Below, piece by piece: positions 3,934 through 26,919 of a DNA stretch of 30,764 nucleotides (positions within the stretch are counted from its first letter, which is position 1; every line of letters starts with the position of its first letter). The position numbers were made by a program, and so were the translations under genes. The DNA is from a virus (taxonomy: Duplodnaviria; Heunggongvirae; Uroviricota; Caudoviricetes): positions 1 to 30,764 of IMG/VR virus record IMGVR_UViG_3300014893_000002. The stretch is one strand, 5' to 3'. The notes below the pieces were generated by a model. It searched no databases and was not told where the DNA came from. It worked only from the letters and a program-made list of their open reading frames with translations.

Positions 3934-3944
3934 CCCCGGAAGCG

Positions 3945-5035: not shown

Positions 5036-5094
5036 ACTCGTCTCCTGAAAATAAAAAACCCGCCAGCGGCGGGTGGGTAAAATCATTAACGACC

Positions 5095-5885: not shown

Positions 5886-6220
5886 ACATTCCCCTTCAGG
5901 CTGCAGAGTATTTCAAGCCGGGTAGCGCGCGCATCCGGTATTGGTGGACCTTCTATACCCAGAATGGCCCCTTTAAATGCACCGGTCAGCACTTTCAGAC
6001 GTGAAGTCGCTGTCACATCGCGCCGGAATCTCATCCAGACTCTGACCGTAGCCTGAGCGGTTTCTGCTCCGCCTGAGATTATCTCCCTCCCGCTGATACC
6101 CTTAACTTCTGCCCATACGGTAGCTCCCTCCGTCACCGTCTCCACCGGATGCCCTGACGGAGAGCGGGCGGTGGTGACATTCAGAATAATTACGCGATCA
6201 CGTAATCTGCCCGCCTGCAT
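5882..6220 (-). CDS. head-tail adaptor / head closure protein (SPP1 gp16-like)
   Basis: 112 aa with RDRV.I, VWAEVKGISGRE, TIRVW and SRLKVLTGAF motifs; close paralog of the ORF at 14097-14435. Confidence 0.75.
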   Translation of the reverse strand: MQAGRLRDRVIILNVTTARSPSGHPVETVTEGATVWAEVKGISGREIISGGAETAQATVRVWMRFRRDVTATSRLKVLTGAFKGAILGIEGPPIPDARATRLEILCSLKGNV

Positions 6221-6228
6221 GTCTCCTC

Positions 6229-6546
6229 CTACAAAGGAATAAAACGATAAGGCTCCAGCAGAGAAGAAAAACCAAACGGGACTGGTGCCTTGCTGACATC
6301 TGAGGAATTTTCCCGGTTTTCGTACCAGTGCCCGACCAGCAACATGAGCGCCAGCAAAACATCATCAGCTATAAGCACCCCTTCAGGATCACCTTCCGGC
6401 ACCGTCTCCTCATAAAGCTTACGGTTGATAAAATTTTCTGCCTTGCGGCAGGCAGCCCGGAAATACAGCATCAGTAACTCATCATCAGTTGCATCATCTG
6501 TATCAATACGGCACTGCGCCCTGAGTTTTTCCACTATTGCTGCCAT
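6229..6546 (-). CDS. head-tail connector protein (gp6-like)
   Basis: About 105 aa starting MAAIVEKLRAQCRID..; gp6-like pattern, directly downstream of the major capsid gene. The track ORF extends upstream to 6726 and overlaps the capsid gene, which is unlikely. Confidence 0.65.
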   Translation of the reverse strand: MAAIVEKLRAQCRIDTDDATDDELLMLYFRAACRKAENFINRKLYEETVPEGDPEGVLIADDVLLALMLLVGHWYENRENSSDVSKAPVPFGFSSLLEPYRFIPL

Positions 6547-6580
6547 CAGAAACTCCTGCCCGCAACACTGTGCGGGCATA

Positions 6581-6603
6581 AAAAAACCGCGTCGGCGCGG
6601 TCT
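6581..6603 (-). terminator. intrinsic terminator downstream of major capsid gene 1
   Basis: Minus strand reads ACCGCG-CCGA-CGCGGT followed by a run of 7 U. Confidence 0.6.
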
Positions 6604-6622
6604 GTAACTGAACAACGAGTGG

Positions 6623-7840: not shown

Positions 7841-7854
7841 CGTCAGTAGTATCC

Positions 7855-8454
7855 TTATGCATTAAGAAGGGTCAAAAGACGCTCACGCGCCATTCGTTCG
7901 TTAACAGCTTTCTTCAGCGCACCACTCGCCCGCGCTTCCTGCCAGGCTTTCATTGAGCGGACACCAGAGTCTGCGTCCTGATAGGCCGGATATGTCACCG
8001 GGCTGACGTCATACAGACGAGAAATGCGCGTGATTTCCCGGATAACAATCCCCTCGTCGTCTTCATACCAGCTCTCTCCGTCACGGGCGACACGAAACGC
8101 GAACGAGGACTGATTAATGTCACCACGCAACATTGGAGACAGCACCAGGTCACAAATAGTCGGAGTATCCGGTGCAACAATGTCATAACGTAAACCGCGT
8201 TCATCCACCGACAATGACAACGTGCCGGCAGAACTTCGTCCGAGAATGAAATTAGGATCATGATTAAACAAGCCACGTACATCATCATTCAGTACATCAT
8301 CAAAAGCCCCCGGCTTGATGATTTCACGAAATCCCCACAGAGGTTCTGAACGACTGTTAAATACCGAGCCATACCCCAGAATGTGGGTCGGGGCATTATC
8401 ATATTGTTCCGCCCGCACCTCCCCGCTGTAACAGCGCGTTTCACGGTCATTCAT
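7855..8454 (-). CDS. prohead protease, HK97 gp4 family (head module 1)
   Basis: 199 aa with ..GYGSVFN.., ..KPGAFDD.. and ..PAY.. pattern typical of caudovirus prohead proteases; sits between portal and capsid genes. Confidence 0.85.
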   Translation of the reverse strand: MNDRETRCYSGEVRAEQYDNAPTHILGYGSVFNSRSEPLWGFREIIKPGAFDDVLNDDVRGLFNHDPNFILGRSSAGTLSLSVDERGLRYDIVAPDTPTICDLVLSPMLRGDINQSSFAFRVARDGESWYEDDEGIVIREITRISRLYDVSPVTYPAYQDADSGVRSMKAWQEARASGALKKAVNERMARERLLTLLNA

Positions 8455-9673
8455 CGTTCTTTTCCTCTTTGCCTTTCGTATCTTTAAAGTTATTCAACGG
8501 ATTTGCTGCATTTACGCTGACCAGCATTTCATCCAGACCGTCAACCGGGTTCATATCCTCAAATGCCCTGGCTTCATTCCGACTCATCCAGCCATCTGTA
8601 ATGGCAAAGTGATAGAACTGCGCACGCTCCTGTGGGGTCCCACGGAGCAACCCCGTGAGGTTGAAACGAACGTAATACCCGGCAGCCCGTTCTGTACGGG
8701 TAAACAGGCGACGGTTAAGCTCCTGCTCCCAGTTCGCAACCCAGGGCATCATCGTGTAGCGAACAAACTGAATCGCCTGCTGCGTAATATTCGAAAATGT
8801 GGCTTTTTCCAGGTCATTAATCATGTGCGCCGGGACATTAAAAATCCCGGCAATCATCGACCGGTTCAGCTTGGTCATATCAATGATCTGAGCATCCACC
8901 GGAGAAACTGTCAGAGCGCGGTAATCCAGTTGCGCAGGCAGCAACATGGTTTTATTTTCCTGGCTGCGAAGCGCTGTCACCGCCCGCTGCCACATATTTT
9001 TAAGCCTGCCCCAGCTTTGTTCGTTCAGTTCATTTTTCACAGAAATAATACCGGCAGGACGGGCATTACCGTTAAAAAAGGCGCTGGTATACTGCTGGCC
9101 ACTCATTCCCATACCAATGGTTTCAGCATGCTGCATGATCGGGCTCAGTCCCATTTTCTGATTGTTTCCCAGCGCCCTGATATGGATCATGTCGTCCGGA
9201 CTTACCGCAAATGCACCCTCTTCGTTATACACCCCGTAAGTATGACGCCCACCGGTGTTAAGTAACGTGGTTTCCCATGGCATACAGCATTCAAGGCTGG
9301 TAACCTCTCCACGACGATTACGTTTTACCCACGTATAACCATTGCCCCACCCCAGCACATGACGCTGCTTCAGTTCCCGCCACTTATAGCTGGTCTGCCA
9401 GGCATTAGGTTCATCATGAACGAGCCAGAACAACGGATGATCGCGTGCCGGCTGAACATGCTCATTCGTTTTTCGCATCACATGCAGGGGCATCTGAGCC
9501 ACACTGGATGAAATAACATAAATACAGGCATAGACAGCAGCCAGCTTCATGGATGTTTCCGGACTGACATACACATCCCGGGCAAAAATATTATCCGTCT
9601 CAGCGGCCTCTCCGGTTACCGGAACCGAGGGATTTTCCAGAGGCTCACTGCGAAACAGAGCATCAAGAAGCAT
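8447..9673 (-). CDS. portal protein, HK97 family (head module 1)
   Basis: 408 aa with typical portal C-terminal motifs (..AGIFNVP.., ..PWVANWEQELNRRL..); GAGGAG RBS 5 nt upstream of the ATG. Confidence 0.9.
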   Translation of the reverse strand: MLLDALFRSEPLENPSVPVTGEAAETDNIFARDVYVSPETSMKLAAVYACIYVISSSVAQMPLHVMRKTNEHVQPARDHPLFWLVHDEPNAWQTSYKWRELKQRHVLGWGNGYTWVKRNRRGEVTSLECCMPWETTLLNTGGRHTYGVYNEEGAFAVSPDDMIHIRALGNNQKMGLSPIMQHAETIGMGMSGQQYTSAFFNGNARPAGIISVKNELNEQSWGRLKNMWQRAVTALRSQENKTMLLPAQLDYRALTVSPVDAQIIDMTKLNRSMIAGIFNVPAHMINDLEKATFSNITQQAIQFVRYTMMPWVANWEQELNRRLFTRTERAAGYYVRFNLTGLLRGTPQERAQFYHFAITDGWMSRNEARAFEDMNPVDGLDEMLVSVNAANPLNNFKDTKGKEEKNDE

Positions 9674-9820
9674 GTTTTCTCCTCATGGACACCACCAGTG
9701 CATAAAGCAGCAACAAACAGCCCGACAGCATCAGAGACGCTGGCAGACCTGCATACAGATAAACGCCAGCAGTGAGCAAACCGAAACCGATCAGCCCGGT
9801 CATATCAGTAATAAGCTGTT

Positions 9821-10584
9821 TCACAGAATTAACAGGTCCTCATCAGGATCAAGCGTGGACAGAAAGTCATTCACGCCCCCTCCATTTACCAGAAAGCGGC
9901 TCATGGCTGTAAAAAGCGCAACAGGGCCGTCGATTTTGGCTTCCGGCGTGGATTTATTCGGGAAGATGTTGTCGTTTTTGTCCGGTTTTACAGTAACGTT
10001 AGACATCATCCAGTTCATGACCGGATGATTGCTGTGATGGAAACGCCCGGCATAAACCAGTGATTCCGTTTCCTTCATGGCCTCTGACAGATTGCGGACC
10101 GTCTGCGGAACCTCCACCAGCGGTATCCCTTCTTCAGCCAGTGCCAGGCTGAACTGCATTGCGCTCCACGGGTCAAATCCCAGTTCCCTGAGGTTTTCAC
10201 CGCCAATCCATTCCAGTAAGTCACTTTTTATCTGAGCATGATCGATAACATCACCATCCGTCAGGATGAGCTTATCCATCTCCGCCCACTTCCGGTAAAG
10301 TTCTGCCTGCTGCCGCGAGCATCGTTCCAGCCGTCCTTCCGGAAGCCAGAATTTAAAATCAGCATGAACATGTCCGTTATCGGTTCGCCAGAGTTTTGCC
10401 GCCGCACAGATATCAATCTTATGAGCAAGGTCGACGCCGACCCACATGGGATATGTTTTCAGCTCATGTTGTGGAGCAATGTATTCGCACTTCTCCCACT
10501 TAATCATATCCATCCAGGCAGATTCGGCAGTGACCCACACATTCATGTGTTTGGTAAGAATATTTCAAGTTTTTTAAAATCACC
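9821..10584 (-). pseudogene. terminase large subunit remnant (C-terminal nuclease-domain portion only)
   Basis: The 241 aa ORF aligns residue-by-residue to the C-terminal part of the intact TerL at 11074-12741, from about residue 330 to its end (e.g. LTKHMNVW vs LTKRFNIW, WVGVDLAHKIDI vs YAGLDLSSTSDI). No N-terminal ATPase domain; upstream frames are broken by stops and a frameshift, but weak homology can be followed to about 10584. Confidence 0.7.
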
Positions 10585-10615
10585 TGTATATCAATCATTT
10601 AACATGAAAAAACAG
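10585..10615 (+). other. candidate Mu-type terminal sequence (element end, putative transposase-binding site)
   Basis: TGTATATCAATCATTTAACATGAAAAAACAG begins with 5'-TG and resembles, from memory, the phage Mu left-end terminus (TGTATTGATTCACTTGAAGTACGAAAAAAAC). It lies exactly where TerL homology stops. Confidence 0.4.
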
Positions 10616-10838
10616 TCTTTATAAATCATCAAGCAATACACAGCGCAATACACGTATCTGTATTGTTTTAATGCTGATACACACCGTTTTTTTGATACAG
10701 TGATTCGACCTACCATCGCGAAGCATTTTTTATTTCTTGTGTGTAACAATCTGACGAGGTGAGCACTCAAAGAGATAAGAGGCAGTAGAAATTTCGATCC
10801 CCCCTGAATGCAATTTTTCGTATATATATACAAAACAG

Positions 10839-10865
10839 CGCGGGTTATGCGGGTTAGCGGGTTAT
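10839..10865 (+). repeat. three tandem 9 bp direct repeats (GCGGGTTAT, GCGGGTTAG, CGGGTTATC)
   Basis: Read directly from the sequence in an AT-rich non-coding region downstream of TerL. Confidence 0.8.
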
Positions 10866-10941
10866 CTTCGCGTGCTAAGTATTTTTTACTCTTTAATATC
10901 AATACGTTAAAAAACAACGTATTTAAATATCAGCCAGAGTG

Positions 10942-10994
10942 TAACCCGCAAGACATTCAAAATAACCCGCAAACACCCCTCAAAAAACCCGCAA
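10942..10994 (+). repeat. three copies of (T)AACCCGCAA at about 22 bp spacing, inverted relative to the GCGGGTTA repeats
   Basis: TAACCCGCAA at 10942 and 10964, AACCCGCAA at 10987; reverse complement of the GCGGGTTA unit about 80 bp upstream. Confidence 0.8.
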
Positions 10995-11073
10995 AAACAT
11001 CCCTGAAAGTGGGTGCCGGTAATACTGAAAATTTATTCCATTAAATGAGCATTGTCCTCTCTCATCCATTCCG

Positions 11074-12741
11074 TTACACACCATCAAACGCCGCAAGCCG
11101 CTCTTTGTGGCTGTCGCTCATATCAAATGCAAATTCCTCATGCTCTGCCTGGAATGTGCCAAACGCCATCAGCGCCGCAACGCTCGGGTCTATCTTGTTG
11201 GATGATTTTTTCTTGTTCGGCTTGATATTGGCGTTCGCGTCACTCTGCATCACAACATTACACATTGACCAGGCCAGCACCGGATCGCCACGATGCACAA
11301 TCACCTTCCGGTTAACAAAAACTTCGAACGATTTCGCCGCCGGACTGAAACGAAGGTATGTTTGCGGGAACGGCTCCACCTCAAATCCTGCCCCCTGTAG
11401 CTGCGTCCTCAGGTGCGTAGCGTTCCATGTATCGAAGCCCACCAGCCTGATATTGAAATTCTCTGCATCCGCCATGATGTCATCACGGATACGGTCATAA
11501 TCAATGCAGTCACCCGGTGTTGTGCGTATCCAGCCCGCCTTTACCCACTGGCGATAGATGGCGCGGTTTTTATTAGCGGGGTTCTGTAGCTGAAATTCCG
11601 GCAGATAGTGACGGGAAACCAGCATAATCTTTTTACCGACCGGAAAGGCATAGCACACGCTGGAAATATCGCTGGTTGATGATAAGTCCAGCCCTGCGTA
11701 GCACTCCTGCCCGTATAAATCCGCCTCCGCGAACGTTCCGGCGCACTCCGCCCATGCACCATTACCCATCCACGGCGTAGCCCCCTGACACCAGATATTG
11801 AATCGCTTGGTGAGCATTTCCACCCACTGCGACGGAATACCCCGCGCTTTCTGGATGGTTGAGGCCAGTTTTTCACGATCGACGGAAACATCGATATTGG
11901 GATTCGCCTTTATCCACATCGCCGGATCGTCAACCTCGCTTTCATCATCCAGCTCGTAAATCAGCACGAACATGGATTCGTTCACCTCTTCACCATCCAG
12001 TATCTGGCAGCAATAGTCGTAGTGTTGTTTACAGGCTGAAACAACGTTGCTCCCCGATGTGGTGATGGCAAATAATAACCCCTCCGGACGCGCCCCCATT
12101 CCCAGTTCAAGCGCGGAATAAACCCCGTTGTCAGGGTGCAGGTGATATTCATCCACAATGGCAAGACTCGGGTTCTTCCCCTCAATGGTTGCCGCTTTTG
12201 CTGCCAGTGGCTTTAACAGGCTGTTGGTTTTCGGGTGTATCACCTTGTTCGCCTGAATATTTACCCGCTTTCGTAACGGTCGGGATAAAAGGCACATCTG
12301 ACGCGCATCATCAAACACGATCCGCGCCTGATCACGACTCACGGCGGCGGTGTAAATATCCTGCTGCCCGTTTTCCATAACCAGAAACCAGTTAGCCAGG
12401 ATAGCGGCGACCGTGGATTTGGCATTTTTTCGCGGTACTTCAATGAATGCGCTGGTGTATTTGCGCCGTCCGGTGGCCTTAACCTTAAAGCCCAGGATGC
12501 ACGCAAAGGCGAACTGCTGCCACGGCTCCAGTTCAATGGGGCTACCGTGCATTGCGCCTTTTACGTGCGGGCACACCCTGGAAAAGGCAATAAACCGCTC
12601 CACGACCTCCGAATCGAACATATAAAGGGGGTTTTCAAGGTCAGAAAAATACCGTTTAACGGTCTGTTTCAGTCGTTTACAGGCCGTAATTTTGCCGTTT
12701 TTTACGCCTTCTGCGTACTCATGCCAGGCGGTCAAGCTCAT
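11074..12741 (-). CDS. terL: terminase large subunit (intact)
   Basis: 555 aa with an N-terminal ATPase region and a C-terminal nuclease-type region (..AGLDLSSTSDISS.., ..VGFDTWNA..); start overlaps the TerS 3' end. Confidence 0.9.
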   Translation of the reverse strand: MSLTAWHEYAEGVKNGKITACKRLKQTVKRYFSDLENPLYMFDSEVVERFIAFSRVCPHVKGAMHGSPIELEPWQQFAFACILGFKVKATGRRKYTSAFIEVPRKNAKSTVAAILANWFLVMENGQQDIYTAAVSRDQARIVFDDARQMCLLSRPLRKRVNIQANKVIHPKTNSLLKPLAAKAATIEGKNPSLAIVDEYHLHPDNGVYSALELGMGARPEGLLFAITTSGSNVVSACKQHYDYCCQILDGEEVNESMFVLIYELDDESEVDDPAMWIKANPNIDVSVDREKLASTIQKARGIPSQWVEMLTKRFNIWCQGATPWMGNGAWAECAGTFAEADLYGQECYAGLDLSSTSDISSVCYAFPVGKKIMLVSRHYLPEFQLQNPANKNRAIYRQWVKAGWIRTTPGDCIDYDRIRDDIMADAENFNIRLVGFDTWNATHLRTQLQGAGFEVEPFPQTYLRFSPAAKSFEVFVNRKVIVHRGDPVLAWSMCNVVMQSDANANIKPNKKKSSNKIDPSVAALMAFGTFQAEHEEFAFDMSDSHKERLAAFDGV

Positions 12742-13075
12742 CCTCTTCCTCTGTTTCCGGTGGATTTCTGCGACGGCTTACCGGGTCAAAACCCAGCAAA
12801 GAAGCCATTTTGATCATTATTCTTTCCGCGTCAGCCTTTGCGCTCAGGGCCGGGTTTCTGCTCTCGCTGCCCTGACTGTTAACAATGCTGAACCCGCGCG
12901 TCGCAAGGTCTTCGACGGCTTTGCGGTATATGGAGTAGTTAACGCAATACAGTTCCAGATTGCTCCAGTCGGCGGGGGTAAGGTCTTCCCGCCCGGAAAG
13001 CTGCCGCGATTTTTCCTTCCACTGCTTTACCGCGATTTCATCCAGGTAAGCGGGGGCTTTTGGTGGTCTTGCCAT
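12719..13075 (-). CDS. terS: terminase small subunit, P27 family
   Basis: Starts MARPPKAPAYL.., the characteristic N-terminus of P27-family small terminases. The track ORF runs from 13216, but that region is more likely non-coding. Confidence 0.8.
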   Translation of the reverse strand: MARPPKAPAYLDEIAVKQWKEKSRQLSGREDLTPADWSNLELYCVNYSIYRKAVEDLATRGFSIVNSQGSESRNPALSAKADAERIMIKMASLLGFDPVSRRRNPPETEEEDELDRLA

Positions 13076-13363
13076 GTTCTTTTTTCGCCCAATTATTTTC
13101 AAAAAAATTCCCGTGCACAAAAATTTGAGGAGGCGGTCGGTGTCCGGCAGGGACGGTTTCGTCCTGAAAACCTCCCCCACCCCCTCTGACGACTTCACCA
13201 GCGATTGCGAAAACATTCCATGACCTCGCGGTCACGGTCGGTTAATCGCTTCGCTGTGGTGCGTTCTGTGCGTCCTATCCTGTTGGCTTTGTGCCCTGTC
13301 TCCTGTGTCTTCCATAAGTCACGCTGCCTTATCAGTCCACGTATCAGCCTGTTTTGCTCCTGT

Positions 13364-13804
13364 TCAGTCATCATCGCCATACATCCAGTCGTTACGATGT
13401 GCCGCCCGTTCTTCCTGCTCGCGATACATGCCCGCCTTACGGTTCGCTTTCGTGGCTGGATCTTCCCGTGTCGTCTTACGGTTGTGGCACGTCTGGCACA
13501 ATGCCTGGTGGTTCCACTCAGGCCAGAAGAGAACATCACCGCCGCCATTGATGGGGATAATGTGATCCACCACAAAGGCTGGCGTATAAATACCCTCAGC
13601 CAGACAACGCACACATAACGGATTTTTTTTCAGGTACAGGGCGCGATATTTGTCCCACTGTCGGGAATACCCGCGCGCGCGGCGGTGTCCCCGTCTGGCA
13701 TCCTCTGCACGCCATGCGGCCCGCCTGTGTTCTTCACACTTGCCGGACTTCACGCGCTTATTACAGCCCGGCTCTGTGCATCGCCTTAATGGTTGCCACG
13801 GCAT
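13364..13804 (-). CDS. HNH endonuclease (packaging-associated)
   Basis: Cys-rich N-terminus and HNH core (..VVDHIIPINGGG..NHQALCQTCHNRKT..); located immediately upstream of TerS as in HK97-type cos phages. Confidence 0.85.
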   Translation of the reverse strand: MPWQPLRRCTEPGCNKRVKSGKCEEHRRAAWRAEDARRGHRRARGYSRQWDKYRALYLKKNPLCVRCLAEGIYTPAFVVDHIIPINGGGDVLFWPEWNHQALCQTCHNRKTTREDPATKANRKAGMYREQEERAAHRNDWMYGDDD

Positions 13805-14100
13805 CAGTACACCCCCACATCACGATAAACCGACCAGAGCGCGGAAATCGTCAGGGGAATTTCTTTTGTATCTGTATCGCCAAGCGTTGTCCGGTACTCG
13901 TACAGTTGCGAGATGTACATCAGGCAGCCAATTTTTATTGCAGGGGTAAATTCCAGGCCATCATCAAAACGCCTACCAATATGTTTCTGACATACCTCCA
14001 GCGCCGCGCTTATGTATGCCTGAATCAGTGTGTCTTCTGTGTTACCGTCTATGCGGCAGTGAAGTTTGGCTTCTTCCAGGGTTATTTTTTCTGCTGTCAT
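13804..14100 (-). CDS. head-tail connector protein (gp6-like), head module 2
   Basis: 98 aa; paralog of 6229-6546 (..L.E.K.H.RID..D.LI..YI.AA..). ATGA overlap with the HNH start. Confidence 0.65.
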   Translation of the reverse strand: MTAEKITLEEAKLHCRIDGNTEDTLIQAYISAALEVCQKHIGRRFDDGLEFTPAIKIGCLMYISQLYEYRTTLGDTDTKEIPLTISALWSVYRDVGVY

Positions 14101-14435
14101 TTTTCTGTACCCACCTTTGCCAGAATTTCCAGCCGGGTTCTTTTCGCATCAGGTAAGGGGATCCCGATGATATTAAGCGTGCTCCCGGCAAAAGCACCGG
14201 TAAGCACTTTCAGTCGACTGGCGGCGGATATGTCGCCACGATAGCGAACCCATACCCGAATCGTTGCAGGTGCGGTTTCTGCGCCTGCGGTCAGTAATTC
14301 CCGTCCGCTGATCCCCTTGACCTCTGCCCAGATGGTTTCCCCTTCCGTCCATATCTGCCGGATCGCTCCTGACGGCAGGCGCTGCGTGATAAATGTCATA
14401 ATCGTCACCCGGTCCCGCATATTTCCGGCTATCAT
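14097..14435 (-). CDS. head-tail adaptor / head closure protein (SPP1 gp16-like), head module 2
   Basis: 112 aa; shares VWAEVKGISGRE, SRLKVLTGAF and TRLEIL with the copy at 5882-6220, roughly 60 percent identity by eye. Confidence 0.75.
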   Translation of the reverse strand: MIAGNMRDRVTIMTFITQRLPSGAIRQIWTEGETIWAEVKGISGRELLTAGAETAPATIRVWVRYRGDISAASRLKVLTGAFAGSTLNIIGIPLPDAKRTRLEILAKVGTEK

Positions 14436-15655
14436 TCGTCACCGCCCTGACTGTTCTTGCTGATTGTCACTTCCTGCTTCCATGCCTGGCTGAACTCGTC
14501 GCCACCTTCACGCGGCGGCATTCCCTCACGCTCACGGGCTTCGTTCGGATTCATGATCCCGTTCTTAATCCCTTTCTCATACGTGGCGTAACGTTCGGTA
14601 GGGGTGGCGCGTAATAAATCAGCTGAATCAAACTCAACCAGATAACGGGTACCGGGTACGGGAGAAGCCACCAGCAAAGCGGCCTTGATTTGCTGTTCGA
14701 AGTTCGCCAGCCACGGGCGCATTGTCATGGTCAGAAACGCGCGGCTTGCCTCGCTGAAATTGCTGTAGGTGCTGTTGCTGTATTCCTGCAGAAAAATAGG
14801 CGATACGTTGAACATCCGGGCGATGTCTTCAATGGAGAAGCGACGGGAGGCCAGCCATTCCGCATCCTGGTTACTCATTCCCAGTTGCTTGTAATCCATG
14901 CCCCCTTCAAGGATTGGCGTTTTTCCGGCATTTTTCGCCCCCTTGTAGCGTTCCAGAGCATCCAATGCCTGTTTACCTTTCACGCCGTCCAGCCATTCGC
15001 CTGACGTGATAATCCCTGCCGCCATCATGCCATCTTTCATAATGCTGGCTCCGTGGCGCTGTTGAGCAAGGCCAAGCCCAAGTGCCTCACGGCAAATCGT
15101 GACAGGGGAGCGCCCCAGAAAGCCATCATCCGAGGCATAGCGGAGATGCAGAACTTCTTCCTGTAAATACGTGCGCACCGTTCCTGTATAGGGTTCGGTG
15201 ATGGTATAGCGGTATTTGTGTGCGCCTGTGCGTTCCGGTACAACACAACCCGGTGCATAAGGATGAAGTGATTTTGGCTGACCGTCCCGCCCCCACTCAA
15301 TAACCGCATAGGCGTTACCGTTCAGCAGGCAGTGACGCATCATTGTGCGTTTAAACTGGTAAGGTGTCTGGCACGAATTAGGCTGCTCATTCAGCAGAAT
15401 ATCTACCGGATGACTGTCCAGCCATTCCCGCGCCTCCCTGCCCTTGTCATTACGTACCAGATACAGATAACAAGGCATCGTGGCCACCGCCTCAGCGATG
15501 ACAGAAACCGCGTTCATCACTGCAGGCAATGATTCAGCCGTCCCGGCAGAAACATATTCTCCGGATCCGGTATTCGGTACGCCGGCCAGCGCCAGAAAAT
15601 CATCAATGGACAGGTTACGTTGCTCACTTTTTTTACGACTAAAAGGCCACCACAT
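14432..15655 (-). CDS. portal protein, HK97 family (head module 2)
   Basis: HK97-type portal motifs (..LLNGNAY.., ..GMSNQDAEWLASRRFSIEDIARMFNVSP.., ..NPNEAREREGMPP..GGDE). Start placed at ATG 15655, just after the protease stop; the track start at 15745 overlaps the protease gene. Confidence 0.85.
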   Translation of the reverse strand: MWWPFSRKKSEQRNLSIDDFLALAGVPNTGSGEYVSAGTAESLPAVMNAVSVIAEAVATMPCYLYLVRNDKGREAREWLDSHPVDILLNEQPNSCQTPYQFKRTMMRHCLLNGNAYAVIEWGRDGQPKSLHPYAPGCVVPERTGAHKYRYTITEPYTGTVRTYLQEEVLHLRYASDDGFLGRSPVTICREALGLGLAQQRHGASIMKDGMMAAGIITSGEWLDGVKGKQALDALERYKGAKNAGKTPILEGGMDYKQLGMSNQDAEWLASRRFSIEDIARMFNVSPIFLQEYSNSTYSNFSEASRAFLTMTMRPWLANFEQQIKAALLVASPVPGTRYLVEFDSADLLRATPTERYATYEKGIKNGIMNPNEAREREGMPPREGGDEFSQAWKQEVTISKNSQGGDE

Positions 15656-15656
15656 A

Positions 15657-16217
15657 TCACAACCCCGCCAGCTCTGCCCAGCGATGACGATTATTTCCTG
15701 CCGGGCGTAATTCAGGGTGCAGTGCAAACAACGAACGGTGGGCAATCTCCACGCCAGATTCTGGATAAGCAGGCATCGACGTTATCGTGATTTCACGGAG
15801 TTCTGCGGCGGTAACAGTGCGCAGATACGGTTTTTGCGCGATATTCCACTCCTCGCATAATGCGCGAAAGCCAAAGCTCATTCCTGTAATGTCGCCCCGC
15901 TCCACCAGCGTAAGCACATCTTTCCCAAGCTGGGTATCCGGCGGTGTCAGTTCAAAACGTAACCCGGTGTTATCCTCAGTCAGTACCAGAGTGCCGGATT
16001 TGGTACGCCCCAGCAGTCGGGTACAGTCATGCTCATACAGGCAGCGCACATCATTACCCGCAGCCAGATAGTCAGCAAAAGCCCCCGGCGTGAACTGTTC
16101 GCGGAACTCATCCCAGATAATTTCTGAAAGGCTGTTCCAGCGAACGGCATACCCCACCAGCTTTTTATTGCTGGCGGTCAGTTCAGATGTGCGGATTTCA
16201 AAATCGGTGTTTTTCAT
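15657..16217 (-). CDS. prohead protease, HK97 gp4 family (head module 2)
   Basis: 186 aa with ..GYAVRWNS.., ..TPGAF.., ..GMSFGF.. and ..MPAYPESG.. pattern; GGAG RBS. Confidence 0.85.
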   Translation of the reverse strand: MKNTDFEIRTSELTASNKKLVGYAVRWNSLSEIIWDEFREQFTPGAFADYLAAGNDVRCLYEHDCTRLLGRTKSGTLVLTEDNTGLRFELTPPDTQLGKDVLTLVERGDITGMSFGFRALCEEWNIAQKPYLRTVTAAELREITITSMPAYPESGVEIAHRSLFALHPELRPAGNNRHRWAELAGL

Positions 16218-16234
16218 CGGTGTACTCCATAAAG

Positions 16235-16260
16235 CTGAAAAAGGAGGCCGCAGCCTCCTC
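16235..16260 (-). terminator. intrinsic terminator or attenuator between capsid gene 2 and protease gene 2
   Basis: Minus strand reads AGGAGGC-TGCG-GCCTCCT followed by UUUUU. Confidence 0.55.
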
Positions 16261-16271
16261 CTTACTCATGA

Positions 16272-17441
16272 CTAGCCAGCTTTCATTTCCAGAATTTTGA
16301 TGGCGTTTGAATCCACCACACCACCGCCCAGATATTTATCCGTGTGGACCTTGTAGAATCCGGGTTCAGTAATGTTGTCCGGTCGGGTGCGAATACCCGT
16401 TACATGATCAACGATGAAATAACCACGACTGAAATCACCAACCGCGAGCGGTGCTTTTCCTGCGCCGATGTCCGGCATGGACTCCAGGCAGTAAACAGGA
16501 CGACCAAGCAACATATCCGGCGCACCTTCTTTAAGGCTGTCGCGCCAGATATAATCGCCGTTCTCGTTTTTCAGCTTCTGTAGTGTCCCTGCCGTGCCCG
16601 AGTTCATCACCCAGACGGCATTTTTGCGGTATTTCGCTTTCAGCTTGTAGAGAATGTCGATCAGTTCGTCCGCTGTAATGGCGGTTCCACTTGCCGCTAC
16701 CATTTTTTCAATGGTGCCAAAAGCGCGGGTTTTGTCACTGGTCGCTGCACGGGTGTAAGCCATGAAGCCTTTCGGCTTGCCGTTACCGTCGCCATTAACA
16801 AAATCATCCTCTTCGGTGCTGGCGAACGTGTCGGCAATTTCGGAGGATAACCAGCCCAGAATATCCACCTCTGAAAAATCCAGAATTTCCTGCGTGGTTT
16901 TCGGGTAGGCGTAGATAGGATTCAACTTGATGGTTACGCGTTCAATTTTCGGGGTGTTGGTTTCGCTGCGCGCGCTGCCTTCTGTGCCTCGTCCTACAGT
17001 TGCGCCGCCAGTGGAAACCAGTTTCTGAAACTCATTTGATTTTGCGGTCTTCACGGTCGCAATCACGCGCATAACACTGTCATCCTGTAGCTGGCGCATG
17101 ACTTCGCGATCAAGCTCAGGAATTACGGTATATCCGCCATCCCTGCCGCTGTCAGTGCTGGTGGACAGTGATCGCACATCTCCGGTTACGATGTAGTTAC
17201 GCAATTCATCAGATGATAATTTCCGGATACCCGTTCCTGGCTTGCTGCGTTCTTCATCATCCACAGATTCGAGGCGGGAGATTTCTGTGTCGAGGGAATC
17301 GGCTTTTGCACGCAGTTCATCAAACTGTTTGCCCTCGTCATCGTTCAGGCTGCGGTTTTCACTGTCGGCTTTTTCCAGCAGAGATCGCATCTGGTTTTTC
17401 AGGGCGGTTTTTTGCTGGCGGAGTTCGATTAATTTCTTCAT
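16272..17441 (-). CDS. major capsid protein, HK97 fold (head module 2)
   Basis: 389 aa with an N-terminal coiled-coil delta-like domain and the ..DFVNGDGNGKPKGF.. segment matching the HK97 NGDGTG motif. Confidence 0.85.
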   Translation of the reverse strand: MKKLIELRQQKTALKNQMRSLLEKADSENRSLNDDEGKQFDELRAKADSLDTEISRLESVDDEERSKPGTGIRKLSSDELRNYIVTGDVRSLSTSTDSGRDGGYTVIPELDREVMRQLQDDSVMRVIATVKTAKSNEFQKLVSTGGATVGRGTEGSARSETNTPKIERVTIKLNPIYAYPKTTQEILDFSEVDILGWLSSEIADTFASTEEDDFVNGDGNGKPKGFMAYTRAATSDKTRAFGTIEKMVAASGTAITADELIDILYKLKAKYRKNAVWVMNSGTAGTLQKLKNENGDYIWRDSLKEGAPDMLLGRPVYCLESMPDIGAGKAPLAVGDFSRGYFIVDHVTGIRTRPDNITEPGFYKVHTDKYLGGGVVDSNAIKILEMKAG

Positions 17442-17727
17442 GAAGGTTTTCTCGTATTGGTTAAGATTCAGGACGTGAAACCAACACGGAGGGAGCGCCG
17501 CCCGACACTCTCGGAATCTCGCAGATCAACCCGGCATCGCGCAGGGGGTCAGGCGGCATTGTGGCGGCTCACGTCTGAGTGCCACGCTCCAACATATACA
17601 TAAAAATCAGTATGTAAACACCTGTCAGTCAGACCGAACAACCACGAAAGAACACGAACAAATAATTTACAAAAGAAGTAAACCATGGCCTATTATTGCT
17701 GTCTCTGACTACAACAAAGGACGCATC

Positions 17728-18234
17728 ATGAATTTAAGCGCAATGGTATACCCTGATACTTTCATAATTAATGGCGAATCATTCAGAGGTAAAAGAAACG
17801 CAAAAGAAAACAAGGTATTAATTCCATATACAAATGAACCGGAAGTAACTATTGGTCAACACATTATCCAGCGTGTCGGTAAAAACGAGATAAATCTAAA
17901 AATTATAGATATGAAGTTGCTTCCCAATGGAACCCTCAGACAGGGAACCAATCATCCAAATATGTTGACTCTCTATATTGAAAATATCACGGGAAATGAA
18001 CATATGACGCCAACTAAAAGTAATACATTTAACATTGGTTCAATTAGTGGTGATCAAGTGCAGATAGGTGAGCATAACCATATGCTGGTAAACATCAGCA
18101 TCACTGAACTGGTTGAAAAAGTCGCTAAATCGGGGGATGTACAAGCCAAATCAGTATTAAAGCAGTTACTGGAAAACAGTACCGTTGCCAGCATTGTTGG
18201 GGCTGGCGCAAGTGCCCTAATAGGCTTACTGTAA
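17728..18234 (+). CDS. hypothetical protein with C-terminal hydrophobic tail, AT-rich cargo gene
   Basis: 168 aa ORF on the opposite strand to the phage operons, with AAAGGA RBS, markedly lower GC than its surroundings, its own terminator, and a C-terminus ..STVASIVGAGASALIGLL. No recognisable family. Confidence 0.6.
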   Translation: MNLSAMVYPDTFIINGESFRGKRNAKENKVLIPYTNEPEVTIGQHIIQRVGKNEINLKIIDMKLLPNGTLRQGTNHPNMLTLYIENITGNEHMTPTKSNTFNIGSISGDQVQIGEHNHMLVNISITELVEKVAKSGDVQAKSVLKQLLENSTVASIVGAGASALIGLL

Positions 18235-18271
18235 AAAAATGGCCTGGATTTTACCAGGCCTTTATTATTTT
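18233..18271. terminator. bidirectional intrinsic terminator
   Basis: GGCCTGG-ATTTTA-CCAGGCC hairpin flanked by an A-run upstream and a T-run downstream; sits between convergent genes. Confidence 0.65.
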
Positions 18272-18518
18272 ACCGTTTCACGGGATCGCGCATTCTGCGC
18301 CTTATTTTCCACAGATATTCGATCATCGCTTCCACCTGTTCACGGTTGGTTGCGAAAATTTCCCCGGTCAGTGAGCTGCGCAGAAAATCATGATGATCCA
18401 CAACAAACAACGCATCGGAAGAAAGCAGACGGCGATATTTTTTTGCTGTCGTGGTTTCCAGATCATCAAAACCATGAAACTTTTTATGTTGCTGAACTTC
18501 TTCAAATGTCACAGGCAT
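18270..18518 (-). CDS. hypothetical protein
   Basis: 82 aa from ATG 18518 with a strong AGGAGG RBS; no recognisable family. Confidence 0.5.
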   Translation of the reverse strand: MPVTFEEVQQHKKFHGFDDLETTTAKKYRRLLSSDALFVVDHHDFLRSSLTGEIFATNREQVEAMIEYLWKIRRRMRDPVKR

Positions 18519-18563
18519 GTTTCCTCCTGCTACCACGATACCAGAAACAGTTAACAACCGTTA

Positions 18564-18767
18564 TCAATTATCCCTTTTTTTCGGGTAGTTCCTGAACATC
18601 TCACCGCCAGGTTTCTGTAAGCCCATCCCGGTATGTGTGCGGTTTATGGCCTCTTTCAGTATTCCGAAATTATCCGGTATGACTGGTTGGCGCGCTGCCT
18701 TACGGATACATTCAGCGCGACGCTTTGCCACCTGTTCGCGCTCCTTGTCAGTGCTCACCAGCCACAT
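18564..18767 (-). CDS. hypothetical protein
   Basis: 67 aa ORF upstream of 18270-18518 on the same strand; weak RBS. Confidence 0.3.
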   Translation of the reverse strand: MWLVSTDKEREQVAKRRAECIRKAARQPVIPDNFGILKEAINRTHTGMGLQKPGGEMFRNYPKKRDN

Positions 18768-18943
18768 AACATCAGCCCAACGTGCCGCTGCTCTCCGGTA
18801 CAGCTGAAGGGACGTAAGATAAATGAATGGTGATTCGTGAGATAATTTCGAACGGGAGTGGGTTAAAACGAATGCTACCGAATAATTTTATGAAATTGTT
18901 TTGCTGTATGTGAAACGGTAGCAGTTCACAAAAAACAGAGAAT

Positions 18944-19144
18944 ATGAGTGGTAAAATTTCTAATCCGTGTTCCGTGAATGGAGAAATATTGCCCATGCCC
19001 GATAAAAATAGCAACCCATCTGACTTTTCTGAAGATATGAAAGGATGCGTTACCTTTGAGTCAGAACGTTATGGACCATCAGGCGACTCATCAGATAACC
19101 GTTCTTCTCAGTCTGATGACGATGCACCGCCACCACGGGACTAA
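18944..19144 (+). CDS. small acidic Ser/Asp-rich hypothetical protein
   Basis: 66 aa ORF (possibly shorter from an internal Met) ending ..DSSDNRSSQSDDDAPPPRD; convergent with the membrane protein gene. Coding status uncertain. Confidence 0.25.
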   Translation: MSGKISNPCSVNGEILPMPDKNSNPSDFSEDMKGCVTFESERYGPSGDSSDNRSSQSDDDAPPPRD

Positions 19145-19785
19145 TCTTTCTGCCGTGCGCTAATGGCTTTATTTCTGGTTCGTCTGATCCTCACCATGGC
19201 AATCTGATCTGCAGGGATATAGGTTGCCATCGCTCCCCAGCTTTTACTTTCAACATCTTTTTCAATCCATTCATCGCGCCCCGGTTTCTTTTCATGAGTG
19301 ACATACATCACTATGTCTTTTTCCACTCCTAACACAAAAGAACCGCTGGCCTGGCCTTCAAATTTCCCCGGATTTTCAGAAAGCAGCACAGTACCATTCT
19401 TCAGATAGACATACGCCTCGCTGATATAGTATCCATGTTGATCAAACATACGCATCCAGGCAGAGGGGGTATCATCAGACCATGATATATCCTTATTTCT
19501 GAGGAATCTGTACATCCATTTACGCCCATATTTTCTCCATAATGCAGCGTATGCAAAAGCGCAAAGAAGTGTTGGAGGTGTCGCCAGCCACGAATTCAGA
19601 CCTGCCCACATAACAGCCTGGTAAACCATCATTGACAGCAAACCAAAAATCAGCGTCGAAAACGTCACCTCAATGGGTTTGTGATGGTTCTTCAGCCCCA
19701 CGTTCGCAATAAAATAGCCGATATAACCACTGGTGAGCGTCACCAGCGTTGCCCATGGCAGATTCAGCAAGGATGCATCAAACAT
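19141..19785 (-). CDS. integral membrane protein of unknown function
   Basis: 214 aa with several predicted N-terminal transmembrane helices and a soluble C-terminal domain; GGAGG RBS. Separated from the Mor-side genes by a terminator. Confidence 0.6.
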   Translation of the reverse strand: MFDASLLNLPWATLVTLTSGYIGYFIANVGLKNHHKPIEVTFSTLIFGLLSMMVYQAVMWAGLNSWLATPPTLLCAFAYAALWRKYGRKWMYRFLRNKDISWSDDTPSAWMRMFDQHGYYISEAYVYLKNGTVLLSENPGKFEGQASGSFVLGVEKDIVMYVTHEKKPGRDEWIEKDVESKSWGAMATYIPADQIAMVRIRRTRNKAISARQKD

Positions 19786-19817
19786 ATTTCCTCCGGTGAT
19801 ATGTTTTTCTGCCAGAA

Positions 19818-19853
19818 TAAAAAAAGCGCAACAGGTTATCCATTGCGCTTTTC
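19818..19853. terminator. bidirectional intrinsic terminator
   Basis: AAAAGCGCAA, an 11 nt loop, then TTGCGCTTTT; perfect 10 bp complement flanked by A and T runs. Confidence 0.5.
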
Positions 19854-19879
19854 ATAAACCGGGAATTTATTGACGTTCG

Positions 19880-20116
19880 TTAACACTTTGGTGGCGGTGG
19901 TGGTGGGTTACGTAAAACTTTCCCGTAATACAAAACACAATTTTCATCAGGCCCGATATGCAGGCGCGAGTTGTCAATCAGCCTGTCGCATTCCCGGAGA
20001 ACATATCTCGCCTCAGCAGAAGTCAGACCGTCAAAAAAATGCCGGATAATTTCCATCGCCATATCTGCATGGTCTGCCTTCTTCAGGGGGGCGCTGTTGG
20101 GGGTTTTATAGCGCAT
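19880..20116 (-). CDS. hypothetical protein (Pro-rich C-terminus)
   Basis: 78 aa from ATG 20116 with GAGG RBS; ends ..RNPPPPPPKC; immediately downstream of mor. Confidence 0.45.
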   Translation of the reverse strand: MRYKTPNSAPLKKADHADMAMEIIRHFFDGLTSAEARYVLRECDRLIDNSRLHIGPDENCVLYYGKVLRNPPPPPPKC

Positions 20117-20133
20117 TATCACCTCGCTTTTGA

Positions 20134-20520
20134 TTAATCCCGGCTGTCATCCGGTTCATCATCGTCTTCGAATAACTGTCCCTGCAACCGGCTGATTTCT
20201 TCCTTTCTTACGCGCTTCACCAGGTTGTAAATCCAGGGAACTGAAACCCTGAATCTGCGGGACAGTTCGTGGTGGTTACGTCCGTTAAACGCCTCATAGA
20301 TTTCACGGTCACGCTGGCTTATCTTCCATCTCATCCCCATAGGAAAATAAACGTTTTGCCCGCCCCAGACCTGCATCATGCGGTTCGCGACGGCCTGACC
20401 AATCTGGTCGGCAATTGCGGGCTCAATATCAATAATCTCGCGAACGGTCTCAGAGGTATGCTGTGCCAGTTCCACCAGGAGTTCCGGCCCTTTACTTCGA
20501 AACTGATTCAGGTCGCTCAT
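20134..20520 (-). CDS. mor: Mor-family transcriptional activator (phage Mu middle operon regulator-like)
   Basis: C-terminal region ..GGQNVYFPMG..REIYEAFNGRNHHELSRRFRVSVPWIYNLVKRVRK matches the Mu Mor/C family pattern (GGQ.VYIP.G .. FNGRN..EL...Y.V). Acidic C-terminal tail. Confidence 0.8.
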   Translation of the reverse strand: MSDLNQFRSKGPELLVELAQHTSETVREIIDIEPAIADQIGQAVANRMMQVWGGQNVYFPMGMRWKISQRDREIYEAFNGRNHHELSRRFRVSVPWIYNLVKRVRKEEISRLQGQLFEDDDEPDDSRD

Positions 20521-25149: not shown

Positions 25150-26919
25150 TCAGTTGCCGTTAACAATGCTGATAACGCTGCTGCGGGCCGGCGTGGTCAG
25201 CGTGGCCATGACTTCATCCAGTGCGGCTTCCGGTACGCCGTCCGGGTACTGTGCCGTTAACTGGCGGTAATGTTCCGGCGTCCAGGTAAGGCCGTCGGCG
25301 CTGAACTTATCGCGCAGGGCTTTCGCGGCCTCCACATGAGTCATGGGACGTTGTTCAGTGCGCGGCCCGCGTACGTCAGAGGCCTGACCACGCTTCGGCA
25401 TATAGGCCGGAAGTGTGGTGTCGTCGATATGTTTATACGGGTCAAGCCGCCCGCCGAACGGCAGCGCCTTCGCCTTGCGTGCGGCGGCTGCATCTGCAGC
25501 GTTGTCTGTACCGGTAACCAGCGCTTCAGTTTCTTTTGCCGCCATCTGTGCCGAGGTTTCCGGCAGGGCTTTGTAACTTTCGCCAAATACCGCCGCGCCT
25601 TCAGCAAAGCCAAACTCGTTCTTTCTGACCTCTTCGACCAGGAAGAACGTCTCGTGGCCGTCCTCACCGGTCAGAACCACCTGTGCCACATCGCTGCGCC
25701 ACGGGTTACGGGTAATCATCAGTTTTTCACCAACCAGTACGCCCGGTACCGTTGATACGTCAAATTCAGTGCCCCGGAACGAGACACGAAGTTTTGGCGT
25801 GACTTTGCGGAGTTCTGGTGCCGCCACAGCCAGTTCACGACATACCTCAACGGAAGGCGCTTTTTTCAGCTGCTCAGCAGTAATCTTCAGCCAGATATCC
25901 GTGCGGGTTTTACCGTGGCGGCTGTGAACAGCCGTGGCGTTAAAGTGGCTGCGCCATTTCGCGGCCAGCGCGTTGAGTTCTTCCAGACTGTGAACCGGCC
26001 GGAACTTCAGACCCGGCTCCAGCTTGCGTTCGATAATGTCCCGCGCCTTTTCCACCTGTCCGGTGGCGCGGGCGTTATGCGGCTTGTGCGCTATCAGGTC
26101 GATGCCCAGTGAGCGGCACATGTTTTTCGTCATACCCGCGGTGTTTGCCGAGCCGGGGTCGAGATAGAGTATTTTCGGCACACCGTGCAGCACGTCTGCG
26201 CCGCCACGCTCCTGCATGGCGTTGATAAGCACAGAACACAGGTTCTCACCTGATTCCGCGCCCGTCACATACTCAACGTAAATCCAGCCGCTGGCATGGT
26301 CGGTAATCTCGTAACTCCACACGCGGTCACTGGCGATACGGGCAAGGTTAGCGGGCTTGTTCTTGTAGAACTTCGCGCTGTCCATCACCTGCAGCCCTTT
26401 ATGTCCATTGCTCAGGTAGTAAAGCGTGCAGAGTGAGGCGTCAATCTGCCAGACATGATTGGGATGCAGACTGGCCACTTCGGTATGTGGTGCAGGGGCA
26501 TCCAGTTGTTCCGGGTGCAGGCCATAGTTACGCAGGGCACGACTGATGGCATCTTCGGACAACGGGAAAAACTCACCGGTGGTTTCATCTGTTCTGCCTG
26601 CGGTGATAAAGCCGTTAGCCCGCAGGGTTTCCACTGCATCTGCGATGGAATAGAGACGCTTACCGTTCTTGCGGGTGGCCTCACGCAGTGTGGCAGATAT
26701 CAGCGCGGCTTCGTCGCGGGTCAGGGCGCTGCGCCCGGCATCGGCGCGTTTTTTGCGTTTATCAGTCACAGATACCTCCTTCAGCCTGCGCAGCAGAGTG
26801 GCGCGGGACATGCCAAGTTCAGCACAGGCAGCGTCGTATATTGCACCGCGTTTACCATGCCCCGCGTCACGTGCCGCGCGGGCGACATAAACCAGTCGTT
26901 CAGTCAGGGCAGCATTCAT
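25150..26919 (-). CDS. DDE transposase (Mu A-like, rve/integrase core)
   Basis: 589 aa with an N-terminal HTH region and integrase-core motifs (..HVWQIDASL.., ..ILYLDPGSANTAG.., then an E-containing helix); paired with the AAA+ ATPase gene as in Mu A/B. Confidence 0.75.
   Translation of the reverse strand: MNAALTERLVYVARAARDAGHGKRGAIYDAACAELGMSRATLLRRLKEVSVTDKRKKRADAGRSALTRDEAALISATLREATRKNGKRLYSIADAVETLRANGFITAGRTDETTGEFFPLSEDAISRALRNYGLHPEQLDAPAPHTEVASLHPNHVWQIDASLCTLYYLSNGHKGLQVMDSAKFYKNKPANLARIASDRVWSYEITDHASGWIYVEYVTGAESGENLCSVLINAMQERGGADVLHGVPKILYLDPGSANTAGMTKNMCRSLGIDLIAHKPHNARATGQVEKARDIIERKLEPGLKFRPVHSLEELNALAAKWRSHFNATAVHSRHGKTRTDIWLKITAEQLKKAPSVEVCRELAVAAPELRKVTPKLRVSFRGTEFDVSTVPGVLVGEKLMITRNPWRSDVAQVVLTGEDGHETFFLVEEVRKNEFGFAEGAAVFGESYKALPETSAQMAAKETEALVTGTDNAADAAAARKAKALPFGGRLDPYKHIDDTTLPAYMPKRGQASDVRGPRTEQRPMTHVEAAKALRDKFSADGLTWTPEHYRQLTAQYPDGVPEAALDEVMATLTTPARSSVISIVNGN

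Follow-up and report, generated by a model that had tools for sequence, protein, structure and literature searches.

An apparent low-GC island in a Caudoviricetes record very probably marks the insertion of a BcepMu-like prophage into a capsid-forming phage satellite with a candidate anti-phage gene

A 30,764-nucleotide stretch of viral DNA (Duplodnaviria; Heunggongvirae; Uroviricota; Caudoviricetes; IMG/VR record IMGVR_UViG_3300014893_000002, positions 1 to 30,764), hereafter called the window, was analyzed around a block of low guanine-plus-cytosine (GC) content at 17442-19150. At this locus, a gene encoding a protein of 168 amino acids (aa) is located on the plus strand at 17728..18234, opposite in orientation to the operons on both sides. 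It is followed by two small minus-strand open reading frames (ORFs; 18270..18518 and 18564..18767) and an acidic Ser/Asp-rich ORF on the plus strand (18944..19144). The block is flanked by a major capsid gene on the left and by the Mu-type genes for Mor and GemA on the right, all three encoded on the minus strand. An earlier sequence-only reading had recorded these genes correctly and had interpreted the block as one cargo island between the early region and the head genes of a single Mu-type phage. Our comparison indicates that the block is very likely the site at which a Mu-like transposable prophage inserted into a capsid-forming phage satellite; two independent elements, each with its own cargo slot, meet there.

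The region 17300-20200 was compared by megablast with 5,426 complete E. coli genomes. Part of it was present in 287 genomes and the whole in none; every match stopped at window position 18804/18805. The left half matched satellites with the full gene set of a capsid-forming phage-inducible chromosomal island (cf-PICI), and the right half matched the ends of Mu-like prophages. A megablast search of 50,697 phage records with the same region gave no match, and a lenient Rfam search across it found nothing.

The left half resembles elements of E. coli 042 and Evo1. Intact copies of the satellite are arranged in the order integrase, two AlpA-family regulators, BRO-N, Icd-like, DUF4222, DUF927 primase, single-stranded DNA-binding protein (SSB), PerC and an 82-aa gene, followed by the 168-aa gene on the opposite strand, major capsid, S78 protease, portal, head-completion protein (HCP), connector, HNH, small terminase subunit (TerS) and large terminase subunit (TerL). 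In the window, the capsid gene (16272..17441, minus strand; Pfam Phage_capsid, E = 2e-71) is the first of the packaging operon, with protease, portal, HCP, connector, HNH, TerS and TerL downstream, and the same order was found in the intact loci L001 and L009. Pfam matches at 11074-17441 were Phage_capsid, HCP, Phage_connect_1, HNH, Terminase_4 and TerL; portal and protease are named by RefSeq in L009. The intact L009 satellite encodes a tyrosine integrase, two Phage_AlpA proteins and a DUF927 primase, spans 14.8 kb from int to terL and contains no tail, lysis or holin genes; the tail genes beside it are those of the surrounding prophage, whose terL is split. This gene set and size define a cf-PICI (SatelliteFinder cfPICI model; e.g., EcCIEDL933), and judged by sequence the satellite appears to agree with the definition in gene set, in size and in the absence of tail and lysis genes. 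The window from about 10.6 to 18.8 kb is the packaging half of such a cf-PICI-type satellite, and the capsid gene, previously assigned to the Mu-type phage, belongs to it.

The satellite itself is located in a further element, as window 1-18804 represents a lambdoid prophage with the cf-PICI inside its terL. Prophage, satellite and transposable phage form three nested mobile elements at this locus. At 9821..10546 only the nuclease domain of TerL is encoded, the satellite lying inside the lambdoid prophage terL as in E. coli Evo1. There, the 5' terL fragment is located beyond the satellite integrase (L009 21257-22507 and 37503-38531; window 9821-11074). At about 10500-11000, where terL and satellite join, the GC content falls to 0.37. 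Further left of 9821..10546, the lambdoid prophage carries a second set of portal, protease, capsid and tail genes.

The second small minus-strand ORF is part of a 5'-truncated perC-family regulator gene extending from codon 15 to its end (18564..18804, minus strand; Pfam PerC, PF06069, E = 1e-18). The match scored 67.8 bits, as compared to a gathering cut-off of 22.6, and covered only profile positions 27-89 of 90 because of the truncation. The intact PerC of E. coli 042 comprises 98 aa (MIKDSKAEELEAKGLYRRAAARW...), and base-by-base comparison showed that the window gene is retained from L15 onward, with the insertion after codon 14. The junction at 18804/18805 reads ...GGTACAGC|TGAAGG..., the prophage side beginning with TGAAGGGACG. 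A BcepMu-like prophage is inserted at this position within the satellite regulator gene and splits the satellite; the first 14 codons of perC and the upstream operon are displaced to the far side of the prophage. Owing to this insertion, the integrase, AlpA and primase parts of the satellite are outside the window, and the integrase, the replication module and the perC 5' end (MIKDSKAEELEAKG...) must be located past the far end of the prophage. The satellite has probably been immobilized by the insertion. At its 3' end (18564-18590), the truncated perC reads ...YPKKRDN*, as compared to ...YPKKKGIIDNGC* in E. coli 042, which indicates a frameshift or an allelic difference near the stop codon.

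In a Serratia cf-PICI (locus L011, 9142-9393), a PrtN/PyocinActivator-family gene occupies the position of perC in the E. coli satellite. We therefore suspect that both genes act as activators of the late operon in their satellites; the Mu-like insertion into perC would then both split and silence the satellite.

To the right of the junction lies the left terminus of the BcepMu-like prophage (18805..18943), which starts with 5'-TG and contains repeated (C)GTGAGATAA motifs resembling transposase sites. Alignment of four Mu-like ends revealed a conserved terminus with a 5'-TGA start and the repeated motif; the window copy begins at 18805 with TGAAGGGACGTAAGATAAATGA.... In other genomes, the same terminus adjoins ycbJ, yeiE, nlpA, potG and a prophage gene. 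The transposase encoded at 25150..26919 shares 68% identity with BcepMu gp09 and 98.8% with its counterpart in Escherichia phage PhiKM. The early operon of the relatives (transposase, ExeA-type ATPase, Gam, GemA, Mor) is directed outward towards this terminus, and lysis and head genes are located past the repressor in the opposite direction; therefore, the head genes left of the island are not those of the Mu-type phage. A DDE transposase, the early genes for Mor, GemA and Gam, and TG ends at variable host DNA characterize the element as BcepMu-like. Hence, the block at 17442-19150 is not one insertion: 17442-18804 is satellite, including the 82-aa gene and the perC backbone gene, and 18805-19150 is about 340 bp of Mu-like end.

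In 500-bp windows over 17501-18250 the GC content was 0.38-0.41, as compared to about 0.50-0.54 in the flanks, and it remained at 0.43-0.47 up to about 20000. The 168-aa ORF has a GC content of 0.38 and a GC content at third codon positions of 0.355, versus 0.51 and 0.56 for the neighbouring capsid gene. The dip noticed earlier is real, but its strongly low part is narrower and corresponds to the 168-aa cassette at 17675-18253. The other element accounts for a further, weaker dip that extends from 18805 to about 20000 (0.41-0.47).

The limits of this cassette were obtained from satellites with an empty site. A search with 16700-18560 identified the satellite region in 157 E. coli genomes; the full stretch was present in 49 of them, and many others matched in two pieces spanning about 555 bp less. 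In E. coli O177:H21 (locus L013), the capsid gene is followed directly by the 82-aa gene and the cassette is missing: the sequences are 95% identical up to 17674 and again from 18254, and about 24 bp replace 579 bp. The cassette (about 17675..18253, plus strand) occupies the variable slot before the packaging module, between the 82-aa backbone gene and the capsid operon. It consists of one gene, its ribosome-binding site (RBS) and part of a bidirectional terminator, and its GC content is 0.382 versus 0.528 for the satellite.

The 168-aa gene starts with ATG, preceded by the RBS AAAGGA six bases 5' of the start codon. A promoter candidate with near-consensus -35 and -10 elements and a 19-nt spacer was recognized by eye only, as a promoter scan did not detect it. 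The bidirectional intrinsic terminator (18241..18260; GGCCTGG-6-CCAGGCC) has a 7-bp stem with six GC pairs, an A-run on the 5' side and a T-run on the 3' side; it was detected on both strands and is common to the 168-aa gene and the convergent 82-aa gene. A related hairpin remains in the empty site of L013. RBS and terminator had already been pointed out in the sequence-only reading. With presence and absence at the same site, deviant composition and expression signals of its own, the cassette has the properties of a moron. The earlier proposal of a moron-type insertion thus stands for these 579 bp, with their low GC content, own signals and an empty site in O177:H21, but not for one insertion in one Mu-type phage. 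The 168-aa gene is an autonomous, horizontally mobile, single-gene cassette found in recognized cargo slots of mobile genetic elements.

The flanks of the cassette belong to the satellite backbone. On the capsid side, the intergenic region 17442..17674 (minus strand; 95% identity to L013) contains a promoter-like site and a structured leader of the capsid operon. The sigma-70-like site (17618->17591, minus strand) precedes the leader, of which 149 nt within 17442-17618 (minus strand) fold at -60.6 kcal/mol (z = -3.1). The leader is kept in the empty-site satellite and may act as an RNA structure that regulates the late genes. On the other side, the 82-aa gene (18270..18518, minus strand; ATG start, RBS GGAGGA, phrog_1957) was found in intact E. 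coli satellites both with and without the cassette. Its homologue search gave close relatives only, and homologues are present in the Serratia cf-PICI L011 (47% identity) and in L014. A role as toxin-antitoxin-like partner of the 168-aa gene was considered and rejected because the 82-aa gene is kept in satellites lacking the cassette and is absent from the non-satellite loci that carry the 168-aa family.

The Mu-like prophage has a cargo slot of its own between mor and its end. The mor gene (20134..20520, minus strand; Pfam Mor, E = 5e-41), with GemA upstream, is the last conserved gene before this slot. An accessory gene (19141..19785, minus strand) encodes a 214-aa DUF6338-like membrane protein, modelled with three transmembrane helices and a C-terminal Sm-like barrel. 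Its score for DUF6338 (PF19865) was 16.3 bits versus a cut-off of 26.5, and several homologues at 44-61% identity have a precomputed PF19865 match. The DUF6338-like gene always follows mor at enterobacterial BcepMu-like prophage ends. The acidic ORF encodes 66 aa rich in Ser, Asp and Pro and is convergent to the DUF6338-like gene, the stop codons of both overlapping. Between mor and the DUF6338-like gene lies an 80-aa ORF (19880-20122, minus strand) with no family in any library, separated from the latter by an intrinsic terminator (19821..19853, minus strand) with a 14-pair stem followed by a T-run. The 80-aa ORF is present in strain R9 and absent from the ST131 and MS 21-1 variants of the phage end.

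The content of the slot varies accordingly. It is empty in MS 21-1, and the window and R9 both carry the 80-aa ORF, the 214-aa protein and the acidic ORF there; an ST131 strain has a diverged version with a 210-aa protein (68% identity) and a RefSeq-annotated 53-aa protein (38% identity). A diverged counterpart of the acidic ORF is annotated in RefSeq as WP_001571575.1. Mu-like prophages of Salmonella and Klebsiella show the same layout, i.e., mor, DUF6338 gene and a small convergent ORF. A D[FY]SE...VT[FV]...Ser/Pro-rich pattern recurs in the small ORFs of four diverged Mu-like ends, among them those of E. coli, Salmonella and Klebsiella. A chance ORF within the transposase-binding end was considered and rejected because these ORFs are positionally equivalent and share the motif. 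Conservation in position and motif makes it very probable that the acidic ORF is a genuine gene and pairs with the DUF6338 membrane protein in a terminal cassette. It had been counted as part of the island, but it belongs to the end cassette of the Mu-like phage.

Database searches were carried out with six ORFs of the region. PADLOC-DB v2 contained no family at E <= 1 for any of them, NCBIfam yielded nothing, and PHROGs gave only families of unknown function, phrog_5789 in the case of the 168-aa protein. No homology to ordinary structural or lysis genes was found for the island genes. Homologues of the 168-aa protein are named hypothetical without exception (98 of 98), and an exhaustive profile search identified 264 cluster representatives of the family. 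A sequence-profile search of the PDB gave only a chance match (E = 0.12), and comparison with the viral folds of BFVD gave nothing convincing (best E 9e-4, TM-score 0.35).

The protein was modelled with AlphaFold2 (AF2) at a mean predicted local distance difference test (pLDDT) score of 79. Residues 1-90 form a confident beta-barrel (pLDDT 82-92 per 10-residue block), followed by a disordered linker, three short strands of low confidence at residues 103-122 and a helical part at residues 125-167 (pLDDT 73-88). The domain layout comprises the N-terminal beta-barrel (aa 1-90), a RHIM-like motif FNIGSISGDQVQIGEHNHM (aa 102-119), and helices with a Gly/Ala-rich hydrophobic tail (aa 125-168). The tail STVASIVGAGASALIGLL, noticed already in the sequence-only reading, has a mean Kyte-Doolittle hydropathy of 1.76.

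The C-terminal part is the most conserved part of the family. Its consensus is FNIGS(V/I)SGxQVQ(I/V)GxxN...(I/V)xELVEKVAxSxDxxAKSxLKxLLENSTVASIVGAGASALLGLL, and the family-invariant positions I103, Q112, G114 and N117 all fall within it. This C-module contains a short Gly/Asn/Gln beta-motif under the strongest constraint, amphipathic helices and the Gly/Ala-rich hydrophobic end. Among 166 full-length relatives, it occurs in combination with at least 17 N-domains that are unrelated to one another; the alternatives include a zinc-ribbon-like and several helical domains, none of them in Pfam. The only recurrent Pfam signal, and the commonest, was RHIM (PF12721), found in 7 of 38 members, always below threshold (best E 0.0039). 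The phi-Q-phi-G-x-x-N core matches the signature shared across the literature on RHIM, PP and BASS3. At one type of locus, L014, the motif is present in two adjacent genes, encoding a tail-less protein of 254 aa and a tailed protein of 169 aa; no such pair was found in the other loci examined.

Members of the family occur in several genomic contexts. In the Serratia cf-PICI and in another enterobacterial cf-PICI, the gene occupies the same slot upstream of the capsid gene on the opposite strand, in the latter with a different N-domain. A P2-like Pseudomonas prophage carries a member in its cargo region beside HEPN and S8-peptidase genes, and members are located in small chromosomal islets in Shewanella and Xanthomonas. 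In L021 (724-2383), the C-module is joined to N-domain P0140 directly upstream of a BstA-type gene (KilA-N and BstA_C), with a GNAT gene, a DUF6602 gene and YefM/YoeB as further neighbours in a surrounding that resembles a defence island. A lambdoid E. coli phage with its own holin, endolysin and spanin has a distant homologue (27% identity) between Rz and the HNH/terminase genes. A tblastn search with the 168-aa protein matched only three of the 50,697 phage records, none of them phi80. No conserved neighbour or partner gene was found across the family loci examined.

We propose, as a tentative reading that we rate somewhat short of even, that the 168-aa protein acts as a stand-alone anti-phage (conflict) effector. 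Its own signals would drive its expression in cells with a resident satellite, and its exchangeable N-domain would recognize a phage-derived cue. The C-module might then self-associate via the RHIM-like phi-Q-phi-G-x-x-N beta-motif, and the amphipathic helices with the Gly/Ala-rich hydrophobic tail might act on the inner membrane, resulting in abortive infection or exclusion. An anti-phage role is supported by the conservation of the family, by a constant C-module with swapped N-domains, by the location in cargo slots and defence-type neighbourhoods, and by the lack of a partner gene. Furthermore, the cf-PICI literature expects the variable region by the packaging module to encode immune systems, and the sub-threshold RHIM matches, the gene pair of L014 and the precedent of Bab/Agp point in the same direction. 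In Bab/Agp (BASS11, from E. coli prophage hotspots), an abortive infection system, activation of a small, helical protein that targets the membrane is brought about by a short amyloid motif that two adjacent proteins have in common. The cassette is therefore a reasonable candidate for a new anti-phage gene of an uncharacterised modular family.

Separate parts of this proposal are less secure. Amyloid-like signalling or oligomerisation of the 168-aa protein driven by the motif appears doubtful. We assign a similarly low probability to the broader idea that the family represents an unrecognised class of single-chain immune effectors of gammaproteobacterial satellites and prophages, in which a swappable sensor would trigger RHIM-type cross-beta, prion-like self-templating and thereby arm a C-terminal membrane-disrupting tail. 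This would amount to necroptosis-style amyloid signalling within one small protein of unicellular bacteria, and the two-gene versions with a tail-less sensor and a tailed effector would show the origin of sensor/effector pairs.

Several observations weigh against an anti-phage effector of this kind. The 168-aa protein belongs to no PADLOC, NCBIfam or named Pfam family, in line with the lack of a recognizable family noted earlier, and a literature search found neither a paper on the protein accession or the PHROG number nor an experimental report. The RHIM score of 15.4 bits is below the gathering cut-off of 20, the upstream Gly of G-phi-Q-phi-G is displaced by two residues (SG-DQ-VQIG), and the motif region reached a pLDDT of only 46-59 in the AF2 model. 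The tail contains only 17-18 hydrophobic residues, which the AF2 model places in a pair of short helices packed within a small helical domain; being short and packed, it may not be a membrane anchor. Furthermore, its counterpart in the distant lambdoid homologue is less hydrophobic. The location in hotspots is circumstantial evidence, as such slots also hold anti-defence, regulatory and virulence genes. The earlier suggestion of defence, anti-defence or lysogenic-conversion cargo fits the slot in so far as the cf-PICI literature expects immune systems there, but no homology shows such a function, PerC being the sole family assignment. The explanation as a whole, which combines near-certain anatomy with an uncertain function of the 168-aa gene, appears to us somewhat better than an even bet.

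Among the alternatives, a role outside defence survives best, although we consider it rather unlikely. The protein might serve anti-defence, regulate host physiology, or aid lysis and release of a satellite that has no holin: cargo slots carry many types of genes, cf-PICIs lack lysis genes, and the tail looks membrane-active. However, the gene is neither co-oriented nor co-regulated with the late operon, a member is found in a phage equipped with holin, endolysin and spanin, and BstA, HEPN and toxin-antitoxin genes are among the neighbours of the family.

Exclusion of superinfecting phages at the inner membrane is unlikely. Here, a tail-anchored protein would block DNA entry, with neither cell death nor polymerisation driven by the motif. 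Such a factor would agree with the location in cargo slots, the layout of a gene with its own promoter and terminator on the opposite strand, and the hydrophobic C-terminus. The conserved beta-motif and the variable N-domains would, however, be left unexplained, and a mainly cytoplasmic protein with a C-terminal anchor only and no signal peptide has an odd topology for a block from the periplasmic side.

It is still less likely that the protein serves the life cycle of the satellite, its N-domain acting like a neck or stopper protein that caps helper heads or manages the capture of helper tails by satellite capsids. Among cf-PICIs, those of Escherichia, Serratia and a further enterobacterium have the gene directly beside the capsid operon, yet near-identical satellites lack it, the family also occurs outside satellites, the N-domain is the part that is exchanged while the C-module is constant, and a terminator insulates the gene, which is encoded on the opposite strand. 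Descent of the N-domain from a head-closure protein was examined by profile-profile comparison (hhalign) with the HCPs of the same elements and rejected at a probability of 0.1; therefore, any relationship to neck proteins would exist at the level of the fold only, where PilZ and other small barrels score nearly as well.

Finally, a single moron island between the early region and the head genes of one Mu-type phage would fit Mor, GemA and capsid genes on the same strand, but it is refuted to the point of being negligible by the break of all E. coli matches at 18804/18805, the base-by-base junction, the TG-terminal repeats that start at 18805 and adjoin unrelated host genes elsewhere, the position and direction of the late genes in the relatives, and the occurrence of the capsid gene in a 14.8-kb satellite that is found intact without the Mu-like element.

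If the 168-aa protein is anti-phage, it would represent an uncatalogued and very compact defence family with 264 clusters across Gammaproteobacteria, and its design of swappable sensors joined to one constant effector module would lend itself to testing and re-targeting. Polymerisation of the RHIM-like motif, if it occurs, would extend RHIM-type signalling to unicellular bacteria and phage satellites, with a bearing on the age of necroptosis-type amyloid signalling. Whatever the function, three levels of mobile elements (prophage, satellite and transposable phage) are clearly nested at the locus, which illustrates how one element can disable the regulator of another. Additionally, it cautions that apparent islands in raw sequence may be junctions between elements.

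The architecture of the elements follows known biology, namely cf-PICI, BcepMu-like phage and PerC; the 168-aa family is uncharacterised and its architecture is unusual. Closest in design are the Bab/Agp and Bell/NLR pairs of the BASS type, including the RHIM-like BASS3. They share with the 168-aa family a small protein in hotspots of mobile elements, a Gly/Asn/Gln-rich beta-motif combined with a helical region containing a hydrophobic helix, a RHIM-core-like phi-Q-phi-G-x-x-N and, at one locus, two adjacent genes with a common motif. In contrast to BASS, the motif of the 168-aa protein is internal and its hydrophobic helix C-terminal instead of N-terminal, no Bell or BB domain is present, and the family usually lacks a partner gene, NLR or TPR sensor. 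The motif score is below the Pfam threshold, and any amyloid formation is putative.

Tai proteins of phi80 and PICIs, morons that block competitors, resemble the cassette in the position upstream of the packaging module and in the logic of a single-gene cassette. Homology to Tai was considered and not found, since TaiEcA is phi80 orf63 and the tblastn search with the 168-aa protein returned no phi80 record; the genomic position alone is analogous. The variable immune regions of other cf-PICIs agree with the locus in core gene set, size and a cassette just before the packaging operon. Unlike these, the present slot holds a gene that matches no catalogued defence system, and this copy of the satellite has itself been interrupted by a transposable prophage and is integrated in the terL of a lambdoid prophage. 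BcepMu, phiE255 and PhiKM are similar to the transposable prophage in transposase identity, outward early operon, TG-terminated end and random insertion sites; the window variant differs by the extra cassette of 80-aa ORF, DUF6338 protein and acidic protein between mor and the end, which some close relatives lack. PerC/Pch activators, finally, are related to the split regulator by the PF06069 match at 18564-18804. The window gene differs from them in being 5'-truncated and cut off from its promoter, and its position in the satellite suggests control of late genes rather than regulation of virulence.

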